From positions 1 through 4,510 of the IMG/VR virus record IMGVR_UViG_2737471843_000002: 4,510 nucleotides of DNA; one strand, written 5' to 3'. Origin of the DNA: a virus. Lineage: Duplodnaviria > Heunggongvirae > Uroviricota > Caudoviricetes. Both the position numbers and the translations under genes were made by a program. The notes below the pieces were generated by a model. It was not told the DNA's origin. It saw nothing but the letters and a program-made list of their open reading frames with translations, and did no database searches. Numbering within the stretch: position 1 is the stretch's first letter; each line of letters opens with the position of its first letter. Of this stretch, positions 1 to 4,510 are shown in pieces.

Positions 1-20
1 ATTGATGCGGAGGGCAGCGC

Positions 21-647
21 ATGAGCAACGCACCGACCATTAAATCGGGAAATGCCGACTTATTACACGCCGAAGCCACACCGCACGGCGTCAATATCAT
101 GACCCGCAATGATGCCGGGGGATATGAGCAGGTTGCTCTTATCAGCTACGAGAGCGCCGTGAACGGCCTTGACGCCGGAGAGTACGACGATAAGCCAGAT
201 ATCGGATACGCCATTCATTTTGCCGTTGCTGATGGCGGGGCGCGTGGCTGGTTCGACTTCACCGCGCAGCATAACGTCACTATGTGGCGCTGGCTGATTG
301 CTGCGACGTTCATTTCTGAGATGAAGCGCGAAAACGGCACAACCACGGTAACTGAGTCTGACGGCACTTCATCGCAGGTGGCGATTTACTCCAATGGCAC
401 GGCGGGGATTGTGGTTTACCCGTTCGCGGAACGTCTGGCGATGGCTAACAACATGGAGGGCGCAATGGTTGAGCGCTACGGCATTGAGCAGGGAACAGCG
501 AACGCCATTGTTTTTTATCAGGCCATGATCGACACGGAGCGCGGCGAGTTGACCCCGTTCGGGCGTGAAACGCTTGCTGAACTTCACAACAGCTTTATAG
601 CTGAACTGGATGAAAACGGCTGGCCTGAAATGCCGCTGGCGCACTGA
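21..647 (+). CDS. Hypothetical acidic protein, 208 aa, function unknown
   Basis: Complete ORF from the six-frame track. ATG at 21 is preceded by GGAGGG at 9-14 (6-nt spacer). The stop TGA at 645-647 is followed after 9 nt by the next start at 657. By my hand count the protein has about 29 Asp+Glu against about 11 Lys+Arg. No catalytic motif recognised. Confidence 0.7.
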   Translation: MSNAPTIKSGNADLLHAEATPHGVNIMTRNDAGGYEQVALISYESAVNGLDAGEYDDKPDIGYAIHFAVADGGARGWFDFTAQHNVTMWRWLIAATFISEMKRENGTTTVTESDGTSSQVAIYSNGTAGIVVYPFAERLAMANNMEGAMVERYGIEQGTANAIVFYQAMIDTERGELTPFGRETLAELHNSFIAELDENGWPEMPLAH

Positions 648-656
648 GGGGGCGAC

Positions 657-998
657 ATGATTACTAAAAATTTCCGACTTAATGCGCTGGCGAATAAGTA
701 TGCGTCGGCACTGTATAACCACATTACGGCTATCAATGGTGGCAATTACTTCATGGTTGACGCGGCAGGCCAGCAAATCCGTGTGGAAATCGTCAATGGA
801 GTAAAAGGCGTTCGCAGCCTGATCGATAGCTACACACTGGCAGCCATGAAAGTGTCCTACCCGCAGTGGGAAACCGTGGGGATAGAGCTTCTTGATCGTT
901 GCGTCACTAATGACGGATTGACTGACGTCGGGCGTGAGATATGGCAAAGCATGGTTAAAGACATGGGCGCGACCGTGGCAGGGGGCAACCATGCGTAA
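657..998 (+). CDS. Hypothetical protein, 113 aa, function unknown
   Basis: Complete ORF. ATG at 657 is preceded by GAGGGGG at 646-652. Its stop TAA at 996-998 overlaps the ATG at 991 of the primase-helicase (ATGCGTAA), indicating translational coupling. No recognisable motif. Confidence 0.7.
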   Translation: MITKNFRLNALANKYASALYNHITAINGGNYFMVDAAGQQIRVEIVNGVKGVRSLIDSYTLAAMKVSYPQWETVGIELLDRCVTNDGLTDVGREIWQSMVKDMGATVAGGNHA

Positions 999-3432
999 TA
1001 TCGACATTATCCGCGAAGTGACCAGTGCCGCCGCCGGGCGCTGGCCTTATGTGCTGGCTGGATTGTCTATCGACGTGCCTGATTCATCGCGCCGCCATTC
1101 TCCATGCCCTGCATGTGGTGGGAAAGACCGTTTCAGATTCGACGACAACGGGCGCGGTAGCTTTATCTGCAATCAGTGTGGCGCTGGTGACGGTTTAGAC
1201 CTGATTAAGAAGGTGAACAACTGCGACACCACAGAAGCGGCGAGGCTTGCCGCTGATGTGCTGGGTATTGATTACCGGGCAGCGCAAACCGACCCGGTGG
1301 CAGCGAGCCATAGAAGAGAGCAACTGGAAGCTGACCGCCAGCAGCGTGAGCAGGAGCGCCAGAAACAGGCAGCAGAGGATGCAGAGCAGCGAAGGGCTAC
1401 GTTTGCCCGTCTGTATGCCGGAATGCGCCAGAGTGCCACACAGGGCGAATCTGATTACCTGCAATCAAAAGGGCTGACCGGGTTTAAATATCCGGTAATG
1501 CCGGATGGTTCGTTATTGCTGGAGCTGGTGGACGAATCCGGCGCAGTGGCAGCAGCGCAAACCATTACACCGCAGGGAGAGAAGCGACTCCTGACAGGTT
1601 CAGCAAAGCGCGGGGCATATCACGCCGTTAACGCACCGGAACAGCCGCAGGCGGTGATTATTGCCGAGGGGCTGGCAACCACTTTATCAGTCCACCTGAT
1701 GCGCCCTGACGCGCTGACAGTGTGCGCCATTGATGCGGGCAACCTGCTACCCGTTGCCGAAGTGATGCGCCGGAAACACCCGCAGTCGCAAATTATCATT
1801 GCCGCAGATAACGACCACCAACAGGACGAACAGGCGAACACGGGCAAAGATGCCGCAGAGAAAGCCGCCTTATCCGTGGCTGGCTGGGTGGCGCTGCCGC
1901 CGACAGACTACAAAGCCGACTGGGACGACTACCGCCAGCAAAACGGGCTGGAAGTCGCTACGGCTGCGTTTAACGATTCGATGTACCAGATTCAGGGGGA
2001 AACCGTGAAACCACAACTACAGGCCATTGCGGGCGGTAAATCCCGCCGTAAAGCCGAAGTCGGAGATATTGCACAAATGGCAGCCAGCCAGAAAGCGCGG
2101 TTGCTTTCATCTCGATGGGATATGTTGGCGGTTAACCCTGATAGTGGCACTGTTTACTGCTACGAATCTGGCGTATGGGAGAAGCTACCAGACAGTGAAT
2201 TAGAAAGGGTTATGGTGGCAATTTTCGACGAGCACGAAGCCCACTACACCGAAAAGGGGATTAAATCGGTTGTCGCAACCATGAAGCTGCAAATACCGGT
2301 AATTGGTGAGCGGAGCGGGGATTTGATTGGTTTTGATAACGGCGTTTATGACCTCGCTACGCAGACGTTTTCCGCCCATTCGCCGGGTAACTGGCTGATG
2401 AACCACAATGGGATCACCTACACCCCGCCAGCGCCGGGGGAAAATATTACCACCAGCGCCCCCAATTTTACCAGTTGGCTGAATCATGCAACGGCTGGCG
2501 ACCATCATAAGGCCGAGCGTATCAAAGCAGCCTTGTTTATGGTGCTGGCGAAGCGTCACGACTGGCAGCTATTCATTGAGATAACTGGCGAGGGCGGCAG
2601 TGGAAAATCCGTATTCAGCAGCATAGCAACCACGCTGGCAGGTGAACACAACACCGCCAGCGGTAGCATGATGACGCTGGACACCGCACGGGGACGGGCG
2701 CAGTTCGTAGGAAAAAGCCTGATTATTATGCCTGACCAGACCCGCTATGTTGGAGAGGGTGCGGGGATTAAAGCCATTACGGGCGGCGATCCGGTAGAGA
2801 TTGATGGGAAATATGAAAAGCAGTTCACAACCGTGATAAATGCCGTTGTTATGGCAACCAATAACGAGCCGATGACATTCACGGAGCGAAACGGGGGCAT
2901 TGCCCGCCGCCGCGTGATATTCCCGTTTAATAACCCGGTATCAGACGCAGACAAAGACCCGGATTTAACAGCAAAAATCAGGCGAGAAATCCCGGTGATT
3001 ATCCGCCACCTGCTAACCACCTTTGCCGACCAGAACAAAGCAAAAGCACTATTACTAGAGCAGCGCGATTCGCAGGAGGCGCTAGAGGTTAAACGCGGCA
3101 CGGATCCGGTTGTCGATATGTGTGCGGCGCTTTTTTTCATGAACGAACCCAAAGGCATGATGATGGGCGGAGGTACATGGGCAGGCCAGCCAGAGCCGAG
3201 GACGTATCTTTATCATCTTTATCTGGCGTTTATGGAGTATCACGGTTTGGGTAAACCGCTTTCCGTCAATAAGTTTTCACGCGCCATAAAATCAGCAGCA
3301 AAAGAGTACCGAGCCAGCTACCTGACGAGAAGCATTAACGGCAGAGCGCAAACCAACGTTGGCTATAACGAGAAGGCTGAGGAGTTCATGCCCCGTGCTT
3401 ACGGTGTGGAGAGCGGGCAGAGTGATGATTGA
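991..3432 (+). CDS. Primase-helicase (Zn-ribbon + TOPRIM primase + SF3/D5-type helicase), P4 alpha-like replication initiator
   Basis: Long ORF; the track gives 934-3432 from a GTG, but I prefer ATG 991 (GGGGG at 981-985, overlap with the upstream stop), giving 814 aa. Cys4 motif CPACGG...CNQCG is encoded at 1105-1179. TOPRIM-like IIAEGLATT has its Glu at 1666-1668 and IIAADNDH its Asp-x-Asp at 1807-1815. Walker A GEGGSGKS is at 2587-2610, Walker B-like SLIIMPD has its Asp at 2734-2736, and SF3 motif C VVMATNN is at 2842-2865. A C-terminal region of about 190 aa follows the helicase core and is a candidate DNA-binding domain. Confidence 0.92.
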   Translation: MRNIDIIREVTSAAAGRWPYVLAGLSIDVPDSSRRHSPCPACGGKDRFRFDDNGRGSFICNQCGAGDGLDLIKKVNNCDTTEAARLAADVLGIDYRAAQTDPVAASHRREQLEADRQQREQERQKQAAEDAEQRRATFARLYAGMRQSATQGESDYLQSKGLTGFKYPVMPDGSLLLELVDESGAVAAAQTITPQGEKRLLTGSAKRGAYHAVNAPEQPQAVIIAEGLATTLSVHLMRPDALTVCAIDAGNLLPVAEVMRRKHPQSQIIIAADNDHQQDEQANTGKDAAEKAALSVAGWVALPPTDYKADWDDYRQQNGLEVATAAFNDSMYQIQGETVKPQLQAIAGGKSRRKAEVGDIAQMAASQKARLLSSRWDMLAVNPDSGTVYCYESGVWEKLPDSELERVMVAIFDEHEAHYTEKGIKSVVATMKLQIPVIGERSGDLIGFDNGVYDLATQTFSAHSPGNWLMNHNGITYTPPAPGENITTSAPNFTSWLNHATAGDHHKAERIKAALFMVLAKRHDWQLFIEITGEGGSGKSVFSSIATTLAGEHNTASGSMMTLDTARGRAQFVGKSLIIMPDQTRYVGEGAGIKAITGGDPVEIDGKYEKQFTTVINAVVMATNNEPMTFTERNGGIARRRVIFPFNNPVSDADKDPDLTAKIRREIPVIIRHLLTTFADQNKAKALLLEQRDSQEALEVKRGTDPVVDMCAALFFMNEPKGMMMGGGTWAGQPEPRTYLYHLYLAFMEYHGLGKPLSVNKFSRAIKSAAKEYRASYLTRSINGRAQTNVGYNEKAEEFMPRAYGVESGQSDD
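1105..1179 (+). other. Cys4 zinc-ribbon motif within the primase N-terminus
   Basis: Cys codons at 1105-1107, 1114-1116, 1168-1170 and 1177-1179 give CxxC-N17-CxxC. Confidence 0.75.
2587..2865 (+). other. SF3 helicase core (Walker A, Walker B, motif C) within the primase-helicase
   Basis: GEGGSGKS at 2587-2610; hydrophobic stretch plus Asp (SLIIMPD) at 2716-2736; ATNN at 2854-2865. The order and spacing are typical of SF3 (D5-like) helicases. Confidence 0.8.
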
Positions 3433-3450
3433 AACTTTTACGGCGGCACT

Positions 3451-3698
3451 TATCCCTACTGCCCTACTAAAAACGAGACGAGGCCAGACGTAGCAAGGCT
3501 TTAAACTAGGTAGGGATATATATTTTTATCCCTACTTATCCCTACATATCCCTACCAAATAAAACAGGCAGCAAAATGCCGTTGAAGTGATTTAGTAGGG
3601 ATAAGTAGGGTTATGTAGGGCAACAAAATTGAATGCCTACCAGTCTGAAAGCCTTGCCATTCGTGGCCTGAGCCAGTTAGTAGGGATTGGTAGGGATA
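3451..3698. repeat. Iteron array: about 11 copies of the 9-mer GTAGGGATA in both orientations
   Basis: Top-strand TATCCCTAC (reverse orientation) at 3451-3459, 3527-3535, 3537-3545 and 3547-3555, plus a degenerate copy at 3459-3467. Top-strand GTAGGGATA at 3510-3518, 3595-3603 and 3690-3698, with degenerate copies GTAGGGTTA at 3605-3613, GTAGGGCAA at 3615-3623 and GTAGGGATT at 3680-3688. Copies inside each block are spaced exactly 10 bp apart. Confidence 0.85.
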
Positions 3699-3703
3699 TT
3701 ACA

Positions 3704-3728
3704 CCCCCAAAAAGATTCTATGGGGGGG
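3704..3728. other. C5/G7 inverted repeat (possible stem-loop) including a G7 homopolymer tract
   Basis: CCCCC at 3704-3708 and GGGGGGG at 3722-3728 are separated by an A/T-rich loop. It lies 23 bp upstream of the ATG at 3751. No U-tract follows on either strand. Confidence 0.3.
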
Positions 3729-3750
3729 TAGCTTATAACGAAGGTGGGCA

Positions 3751-4053
3751 ATGAATACAGAAACCAGCCAGAAAATGACCTATCAGGAGCGTGAAGCATT
3801 GAAGGGGTTTACTGACAAACGCGCATTACAGGGCGACACCCAAAGCCTGCAAATGACCTTGAGGATGATCGCCCACTGGATGAGGCAGCCAGCAGAAATT
3901 GGATTTACAGAATATGCAACACACTGGACGGCAGCACAGGCCGGACGTGATGACGGGAATCACTCGACCGCAGCAATGGCGGAGCAGTGGCCTTTAAGGG
4001 AAGAAATGAAAATTATCCCCGGAGGTAGTGACTACATGAGGAAATATCTATGA
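3751..4053 (+). CDS. Hypothetical protein, 100 aa, function unknown
   Basis: Complete ORF. ATG at 3751 is preceded by AAGGTGGG at 3741-3748. Its stop TGA at 4051-4053 overlaps the ATG at 4050 of the SSB-like gene (ATGA), indicating translational coupling. An alternative start is the ATG at 3775. Confidence 0.6.
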   Translation: MNTETSQKMTYQEREALKGFTDKRALQGDTQSLQMTLRMIAHWMRQPAEIGFTEYATHWTAAQAGRDDGNHSTAAMAEQWPLREEMKIIPGGSDYMRKYL

Positions 4054-4510
4054 CAGCACAAATTTCAGCATACGGGCGGCTGGTGGCAGATCCCCAGACC
4101 CGTACCACAGCAAACGGTACAAGCATGGCAATGGGACGGTTAGCGGTGGCACTGCCCTGCCATGCAGCAGAGGGCGGAGAGGTTACTTTCTGGCTGGGCG
4201 TGGTGGCATTCGGCAAACAGGCCGACGCACTGGCAGGACACGTTAAAGGCGATTTAGTCAGTGTTGCCGGAGCGATGCAGATCAATCAGTGGACGGGCAA
4301 GGATGGCGGTACACAGCAAGGTTATCAGGTAGTAGCCGACAGCGTGATCAGCGCCAGAACGGTACGCCCCGGCGGGAAGCGGGCCGAATCAGTCAAAGCA
4401 AGCGGAGCCAGCAGGGGCCACACAACACAATCCGCGCCGGGATGGGAGTTATATAATACCCCTGATGATTTTGACCAACGCCCACCATTCGACGATGAAA
4501 CGCCATTCTG
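4050..4510 (+). CDS. Single-stranded DNA-binding protein-like (OB-fold) with acidic C-terminal tip; 3' end at the window edge
   Basis: Not in the ORF track because no stop falls inside the window. My manual translation from ATG 4050 (GAGG at 4038-4041, 8-nt spacer) gives MTAQISAYGRLVADPQTRTTANG...FWLGVVAFGKQADALAGHVKGDLVSVAGAMQINQWTGKDGGTQQGYQVVADSV...PPFDDETPF. Block-wise this resembles E. coli SSB ([60 protein letters not shown]; tip DDDIPF). The last two bases of the window are TG, so a TGA stop immediately after ...DDETPF is plausible. Confidence 0.85.
   Translation, partial: MTAQISAYGRLVADPQTRTTANGTSMAMGRLAVALPCHAAEGGEVTFWLGVVAFGKQADALAGHVKGDLVSVAGAMQINQWTGKDGGTQQGYQVVADSVISARTVRPGGKRAESVKASGASRGHTTQSAPGWELYNTPDDFDQRPPFDDETPF

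Follow-up and report, generated by a model that had tools for sequence, protein, structure and literature searches.

The stretch of DNA analysed here (the window, 4510 bp, positions 1 to 4,510 of IMG/VR record IMGVR_UViG_2737471843_000002, assigned to Caudoviricetes) raises the question of what a dense cluster of short repeats is doing directly behind a primase-helicase gene. The repeats, copies of the 9-mer GTAGGGATA, occupy positions 3451-3698, within the 318-bp gap between an 813-aa primase-helicase open reading frame (ORF; 991-3432, plus strand), the presumed initiator, and the ORF at 3751. We read the array as, very probably, the single-site vegetative replication origin of a ~12-kb island resembling the phage-inducible chromosomal islands (PICIs).

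The window contains seven exact copies of GTAGGGATA, located at 3451-3459(-), 3510-3518(+), 3527-3535(-), 3537-3545(-), 3547-3555(-), 3595-3603(+) and 3690-3698(+), where 0.02 copies are expected; none of 200 dinucleotide-preserving shuffles reached seven. The 6-bp core GTAGGG occurs 11 times in the window, every time within 3454-3695 (expected 1.3; 0/200 shuffles reached 11). This confinement of seven 9-mers and 11 cores to 250 bp argues for an origin. A search allowing mismatches gave the degenerate copies 3605-3613(+) GTAGGGTTA, 3615-3623(+) GTAGGGCAA and 3680-3688(+) GTAGGGATT, and a further one at 3459-3467(-), GTAGGGCAG, retains the core alone (3462-3467(-)). The earlier sequence-only reading had counted seven perfect and four degenerate 9-mers in about 250 bp of non-coding DNA just downstream of the primase-helicase, arranged in opposite blocks with exact 10-bp phasing. 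All of these copies were recovered by the exact, mismatch and core searches, the phasing holds for all three blocks, and the gap behind the stop codon at 3432 holds no ORF of at least 60 amino acids. A twelfth, degenerate site absent from that count, 3632-3640(-) GTAGGCATT, is added here; its position holds a perfect copy in relatives. The first iteron lies 18 bp after the primase stop codon, and 52 bp separate the end of the array from the next gene (3751).

The sites follow the order two reverse, one forward, AT tract, three reverse, three forward, one reverse and two forward. The outer left pair (3451-3467, minus strand) reads TATCCCTAC and then tgCCCTAC, with the cores 8 bp apart, and a pair is found at the same offset in relatives. 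The single forward iteron (3510-3518, GTAGGGATA) faces the inner left triplet (3527-3555, minus strand, TATCCCTAC three times), and a 14-bp pure A/T tract, ATATATATTTTTAT (3516-3529), a candidate DNA-unwinding site, sits between these facing iterons. The central spacer (3556-3594, ~64% A+T) is the dyad centre and contains a small hairpin, GGCAGCAAAATGCC, at 3567-3580. It is followed by the inner right triplet (3595-3623, plus strand; GTAGGGATA, GTAGGGTTA, GTAGGGCAA), by the degenerate reverse iteron at 3632-3640, which mirrors the forward iteron at 3510 (a good copy is present at that position in the related loci L003, L006, L007, L002 and L034), and by the outer right pair (3680-3698, plus strand; GTAGGGATT, GTAGGGATA). 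The start-to-start spacing is exactly 10 bp in both triplets (3527/3537/3547 and 3595/3605/3615) and in the outer right pair (3680/3690). The whole arrangement has dyad symmetry around ~3575: each side holds six sites, and the two 80-nt arms (3481-3560 and 3590-3669) show 73% complementarity. As single-stranded DNA, 3445-3705 is predicted to fold into one long hairpin (-57 kcal/mol, z = -8.75).

Elements other than iterons are also part of the array. A spacer element, CTGAAAGCCttGCCATTcgTGGC (3645-3667), is common to the published Escherichia coli PICI EcCICFT073 (where it reads CTGAAAGCCGCGCCATTACTGGC) and other relatives. Its mirror copy in the left arm, AGGCCAG..GCAAGGCTTT (3481-3502), belongs to the inverted repeat I1 and consists of conserved columns in alignment A1, which comprises 10 origins across genera and iteron classes. 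The right-hand border is formed by CCCCCAAAAAGATTCTATGGGGGGG (3704-3728), whose AAAA(G/C)(A/T)TTT and following G-run are invariant or nearly so in alignment A1; in several relatives this G-run doubles as the ribosome-binding site of the next gene. The non-iteron elements (CTGAAAGCC..GCCATT.CTGG with its left-arm mirror copy, and AAAA(G/C)(A/T)TTT with the G-run) are kept across origins with differing iteron words.

Duplex stability in the window is lowest for the 20-mer at 3515-3534 (z = 3.3), which contains the 14-bp A/T run; the GC fraction around the tract is 0.25-0.30, and an AT- or T-rich tract is kept at this position in all 10 aligned origins. That the least stable duplex of the window falls inside the array is a further argument for an origin. 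No DnaA box, IHF site, Fis-like site or GATC was found in 3433-3750. A search of the whole window against Rfam at a permissive threshold returned nothing in the array, and a structured-RNA reading of the array was rejected for want of such support, despite the strong single-strand folding of the dyad.

The closest published counterpart is found in EcCICFT073, whose array likewise lies immediately 3' of pri-rep and is followed by a small ORF and ssb (gap of 288 bp there, 318 bp here). The sites match in number, order, orientation and approximate offsets; the inner reverse triplet of EcCICFT073 likewise has ~10-bp spacing, and a T-rich tract precedes it. The right forward block of EcCICFT073 has two GTAGA cores and a degenerate third repeat at ~10-bp spacing, where the window has three repeats. 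Both origins carry the spacer CTGAAAGCC..GCCATT.CTGG and the right-hand AAAA..TTT..G-run, and the EcCICFT073 motif CTGAAAGCCGCGCCATTACTGGC stands, like CTGAAAGCCttGCCATTcgTGGC of the window, between the single reverse site and the final two forward sites. The GTAG half is common to every iteron in both elements, whereas the full word is GGTAGAYA in EcCICFT073 and GTAGGGATA here. In published experiments, a plasmid carrying pri-ori of EcCICFT073 persisted at the restrictive temperature, and colony numbers fell when either pri or ori was deleted (Fillol-Salom et al. 2018, PMC6092414). Since the scaffold is common to this tested region, the array of the window can be read as an origin. It shows what marks a PICI origin: the position 3' of pri-rep, opposed iteron sets flanking AT-rich DNA, and a scaffold shared with a tested member.

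The presumed initiator has the domains expected of such a role. Pfam places a Zn ribbon at aa 34-69, Toprim at 222-319, D5_N at 381-499, an SF3-type NTPase at 532-639 and the Pox_D5 C-terminal region at 736-796. P4 alpha, which combines origin recognition, helicase and primase activities, is 38% identical to this protein across 98% of its length, and aa 390-649 match the structure of the SaPI5 PriRep helicase (7OLA). Codons 704-796 (3100-3378, plus strand) encode the presumed iteron reader, a C-terminal winged-helix origin-binding domain, which matches the solved origin-binding winged helix of P4 alpha (PDB 1KA8; phmmer E = 3.9e-8). The initiators of EcCICFT073 and of the window are homologous from D5_N to the C-terminus; the EcCICFT073 protein (584 aa) aligns only from ~aa 360, whereas that of the window, at 813 aa, has the full length of the P4 alpha type and includes the N-terminal Zn ribbon and Toprim.

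Relatives were collected by a scan of one genome per species, which gave 76 loci with relatives of the primase, and the 400 bp after each gene were read for arrays. Arrays of GTAGGGATA follow homologous primases in Kluyvera, Atlantibacter, Buttiauxella, Shimwellia and a contig labelled Chryseobacterium. Two contigs of that label (Chryseobacterium sp. 18061; loci L010 and L060) carry an enterobacterial-type primase with 82% identity and a GTAGGG array, and the assembly is probably mixed or mislabelled. Other words are found in Aeromonas allosaccharophila (GGTAGGGTT), Rosenbergiella (GGTAGAGATA), Aeromonas molluscorum (GGTAGAGAG), Yersinia pekkanenii (GTAGATAGT), Tolumonas (GGTAGACC), a circular Klebsiella record (GTAGAsGTA), Yersinia (CTGAAYA), Proteus (CTGTGCAC) and, in weaker arrays, Xenorhabdus (GATGTATAG). 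The P4 type I iteron GGTGAACA is present in Rahnella, Tatumella, Erwinia, Serratia aquatilis and the published PICIs EcCIRM13514 and EcCI224. The common scaffold, with GTAGGGATA or one of these other words, follows homologous primases in Kluyvera, Atlantibacter, Buttiauxella, Shimwellia, Aeromonas, Rosenbergiella, Yersinia, Klebsiella, Tolumonas, Rahnella, Tatumella, Erwinia, Serratia and EcCIRM13514, a recurrence that also supports the origin.

The iteron word varies together with one part of the initiator. When 44 initiators were ranked by identity to the window protein over aa 704-800, all loci of the GTAG class had at least 52% and all loci of other classes at most 49%, while identity over the helicase domain did not separate the classes. 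The initiator of Tatumella L044, with P4-type iterons, is 88% identical in the helicase and 45% in the C-terminus (by segments, 71-87% over aa 1-700, 41% over aa 700-760 and 24% over aa 760-813). That of EcCICFT073, with GTAG-type iterons, is 64% identical in the helicase and 52% in the C-terminus; that of Aeromonas L040, with GTAGGG iterons, is 35-66% identical in the body and 66% and 53% in the C-terminus. These segment-wise identities show modular exchange in the initiators, and over ~45 loci the iteron class follows the C-terminal domain and not the rest of the protein. Because the domain concerned is the one that matches 1KA8, this covariation supports an origin, and it argues directly against an unrelated repressor as the reader of the repeats. 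In the alignment, the class-specific segment reads SVNKFSRAIKSAAKEY...TRSINGRAQTN in the GTAG class and TLTRFGSDFPKVMKEY...KAKTKAGIRYN in the GGTGAACA class; within the GTAG class, readers of GTAGGG and of GTAGA differ by a few substitutions.

The sites themselves are selectively conserved, which again favours an origin. In a comparison of diverged GTAGGG-class origins (the window, Buttiauxella, L010 and L003, the last an E. coli copy that has diverged and is integrated elsewhere), the iteron cores are 87% conserved and the rest of the gap 54%, a difference that none of 317 circular shifts of the mask reached. In alignment A1 the invariant columns are chiefly the GTAG/CTAC of each site; the scaffold is therefore common, with half of the recognition word exchanged.

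The surroundings of the array are those of a satellite. In E. coli strain CP131_Sichuan the region lies within an island adjoining tRNA-Thr and proA, followed by a separate lambdoid prophage. The island gene order is integrase, AlpA-like HTH, antA/B, DUF4222, Icd-like, small hypotheticals, P4-family primase, array, 100-aa ORF, ssb and further hypotheticals, all on the same strand except one gene at the far end. In the island locus L001, int and the AlpA-like HTH (phrog_66/2790) are present, and ~12 kb separate tRNA-Thr from the next integrase. A 12-bp direct repeat, ATGGGGGTACTT, occurs at L001 15159-15170 (in the interval between tRNA-Thr and the integrase) and 27111-27122 (just ahead of the adjacent prophage's own integrase). 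This repeat is a possible attachment core, which would give an island of ~12 kb in tandem with the prophage, a match of 12 bp alone being near chance. No capsid, packaging or terminase genes were recognised in the island annotation. With int, an alpA-type regulator, a unidirectional operon, a size in the ~8-15 kb range and a dedicated attachment site, the element is, by its gene content, a PICI-like phage satellite at tRNA-Thr/proA of E. coli. The attachment site differs from that of EcCICFT073; the layout is that of EcCICFT073, which supports reading the array as the origin, and so does the outcome of a scan of the island for a second cluster of GTAGGGATA or its core, which found none.

Matches to the window were found in 390 E. 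coli chromosome records (in 69 of these they cover 80% of the window or more) and in a few small 'plasmids' of Klebsiella and Raoultella; megablast against phage genomes gave no match. Of 5426 complete E. coli genomes, 78 contain the array in exact form, as do five IMG/VR contigs, where it adjoins the same primase. The closest database match, L097 (E. coli ET650, NZ_CP100936.1), has an IS5-like ISKpn26 in CTAG (3506-3509) just 5' of the iteron at 3510, which splits the array, and its primase is annotated ~48 codons shorter; the island appears to be decaying in this strain.

Another record, L089 (Klebsiella pneumoniae 'plasmid unnamed1', NZ_CP033626.1, 22.9 kb, circular), consists of ~1.25 copies of a related ~18-kb island with the integrase retained; what was assembled as a plasmid is probably the circular form of the island, excised or replicating. 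Its P4-family primase is its sole replication gene, and its sole iteron cluster (GTAGAsGTA) follows that gene, which supports the same function for the array of the window.

Several points weigh against the origin reading. For this particular sequence we infer that the initiator binds, that the origin fires and where the duplex melts. The strongest A/T tract lies in the left half and not at the centre, whereas a published summary places the AT-rich region between two iteron sets, so that the exact unwinding site can be given only tentatively. Among the relatives, the Xenorhabdus and Photorhabdus loci (L012-L032) hold just 3-4 copies of GATGTATAG, and in Serratia fonticola L009 the 400 bp behind the primase (5415-5815) contain no repeated word, coding-looking sequence following directly. 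Finally, in P4 the cluster directly after alpha is crr, a region required in cis, and not the site of initiation.

This last point leads to the alternative that survives best, itself very improbable: a crr-like accessory site, bound by the initiator and required in cis, with synthesis starting elsewhere in the island. In P4, 46 bp separate the alpha stop codon from the start of crr, with ori 4.5 kb off, and the right part of the present type of array aligns with a P4 crr unit (one reverse site, CTGAA.., two forward sites and an A/T run). The left part of the array, however, has the layout of P4 ori (two reverse, one forward, three reverse, AT tract), so that both modules appear to stand side by side here, and L001 holds no second cluster of GTAGGGATA or the core. 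The counterpart region of EcCICFT073, together with pri alone, supported plasmid maintenance (PMC6092414).

The two systems have much in common. The initiator of the window is, like P4 alpha, a protein of the same family with a C-terminal origin-binding winged helix, and P4 too has short iterons in both orientations at 10-11-bp spacing, one cluster of them directly after the initiator gene. Its sites, however, fall into two places 4.5 kb from each other, ori and a duplicated crr, and the array of the window is contiguous. As the island has no second motif cluster, a single-site origin is indicated, as in EcCICFT073; by its architecture the closest relative is the single-site Gram-negative PICI origin and not the two-part ori/crr of P4. 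No Cnr homologue was detected. EcCIRM13514 (L083 8055-8340), which carries the P4 iteron on the PICI scaffold, was used as a bridge for aligning P4: the P4 (L080) ori at 545-648 aligns with the left module, and a crr unit (5368-5667) with the right end, of the contiguous EcCIRM13514 origin. Ori and crr of P4 may on this reading be the separated modules of a single origin; as the iterons drive much of the alignment, we regard this as a lead only.

Still less probable is a set of operators, through which a repressor encoded elsewhere, or the primase solely as an autoregulator, would control the downstream ssb operon or attenuate or terminate transcription of the primase. The array does separate two gene blocks that run in the same direction, repeats of this phased, inverted kind are typical of operators, and a regulatory side-role of initiator binding is possible. 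Twelve sites over 250 bp, however, far exceed the needs of an operator, and the word covaries with the C-terminal domain of the primase and not with any neighbouring regulator. In 3300-3900 no sigma-70-like promoter was found, and the sole terminator-like match is a weak minus-strand hairpin at the dyad centre, at chance level. The counterpart region of EcCICFT073 behaves as an origin (PMC6092414). Least credible, and close to negligible, is a packaging (cos/pac) or centromere-like partition site: satellites do carry helper-phage packaging sites, and short phased repeats in arrays also make up centromere-like sites, but a search for lambda-type cos across the island gave chance-level matches alone, no partition or terminase genes were recognised beside the array, and the covariation is with the replication initiator.

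Two more distant kinds of origin are instructive. In the staphylococcal islands (SaPIs), the C-terminal winged helix of Rep, a self-loading SF3 helicase, binds iterons directly after rep; six to twelve short opposed iterons surround an AT-rich region, and two hexamers have been proposed to load (PMC9371898). Their iterons are 5-6 bp long, with no relation in sequence to those of the window, and belong to a Gram-positive host. The likeness is one of design and helicase fold only. Plasmid iteron origins likewise have repeated initiator sites, bound by winged helices, beside an AT-rich unwinding region. Those of pSC101, R6K, RK2, F and P1 have direct repeats of 17-22 bp at ~22-bp spacing, DnaA boxes, IHF sites and often GATC clusters, and their Rep is not a helicase. 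The window array differs in its inverted 9-bp sites, its 10-bp spacing and an initiator that is itself a helicase-primase. A plasmid origin of the Rep_3/pi/TrfA type was therefore rejected, the array having 9-bp inverted repeats, no DnaA box or IHF site, and a primase with an SF3 helicase as initiator.

The sequence-only reading had given the P4 type I iteron as TGTTCACC, in agreement with the P4 record, where the iteron is this 8-mer, and had proposed a distinct specificity. With TGTTCACC in P4 and GTAGGGATA here the specificity would indeed be different. Its wider proposal, initiator-binding iterons in a candidate origin, gains support from the EcCICFT073 scaffold, the covariation, the conservation of the cores and the stability minimum. 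The array is distinct in specificity and less novel in its architecture, which has already been described and tested in the sister element EcCICFT073. Among the published E. coli PICIs, GGTAGAYA is the word of CFT073, IHE3034 and ATCC 25922, GGTGAACA that of RM13514 and Ecol_224, AAGTGAGG that of 042, and AAGTGGGG that of D i14 and 11368; GTAGGGATA is absent from these eight. Judged from these words, the GTAGGGATA pair is a new specificity allele of an architecture and function already described for Gram-negative PICIs. GTAGGGATA may already be drawn in Fig. 2a of PMC6092414, which gives E. coli PICI iterons. A full-text literature search for the 9-mer gave no relevant occurrence among the matches listed.

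If the array is the origin, replication could proceed as follows. The C-terminal winged helix of the primase-helicase (991-3432) would recognise the 9-bp iterons through an invariant GTAG half and a variable GGATA half. The twelve sites would act as two mirror halves of six, the 10-bp spacing putting neighbours on one face of the helix, and cooperative binding would assemble the SF3-type helicase on both halves of the dyad, probably as two hexamers. The duplex would open at the A/T tract (3516-3529). The N-terminal Zn-ribbon/Toprim primase would then prime synthesis by the host polymerase, with the island SSB coating the single strands. Loading of a double hexamer and bidirectional synthesis are likewise steps that we infer.

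A more far-reaching combination of proposals is conceivable, with the balance tilting against it: that one scaffold carries mutually orthogonal initiator-origin pairs, that the present pair does not cross-react with EcCICFT073, that six plus six sites correspond to two hexamers, and that P4 ori/crr is a split origin. The variable half (GGATA, AGATA, ATAGT, ACAG, ACGTA or ACC) may then be read by a few residues of the winged helix, and a candidate specificity segment is TR-S-IN-GR-A-QTN in the GTAGGG class against TR-K-VK-G-x-T-QTN in the GTAGA class. By analogy with the SV40 and papillomavirus origins, the 6+6 mirror may reflect one winged helix per subunit in two head-to-head hexamers. If the pairs were orthogonal, different satellites could coexist in one cell.

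The flanking genes are in keeping with a replication module. The first gene after the array (3751-4053, plus strand) encodes 100 aa; a small ORF also occupies that position in EcCICFT073, and no similarity between the two proteins was detectable. It is followed by ssb (4050-4510, plus strand; Pfam SSB, E = 1e-14), which encodes a single-stranded DNA-binding protein, runs past the end of the window and belongs to the replication module with the primase and the array. The order primase, origin, small ORF, ssb is common to EcCICFT073 and other E. coli PICIs. The ATG of the primase (991) overlaps the stop codon of an upstream 113-aa ORF in ATGCGTAA (991-998), and the ATG of ssb (4050) overlaps that of the 100-aa ORF in ATGA (4050-4053), which suggests translational coupling. 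The gene upstream of the primase has no homology to P4 ORF106, which we take to be cnr. Within the primase coding region, a sub-threshold Rfam match to aceE-II (2774-2961; 20.9 bits against a gathering score of 100, E = 0.023) is most likely due to chance.

The array, the covariation series and the link to P4 do not overturn the current understanding of these elements. A function is given to a conspicuous non-coding repeat cluster in E. coli and other enterobacterial genera, and a fifth iteron specificity is placed beside the four found among the published E. coli PICIs checked. The ori/crr arrangement of P4 is linked, as a lead only, to a single contiguous origin. The relatives provide a graded natural series for how a winged helix reads a 9-bp word, in which the scaffold and the GTAG half stay constant and the other half varies with the C-terminal domain, and this series could be used for the design of compatible small replicons and for predicting which satellites share a cell.

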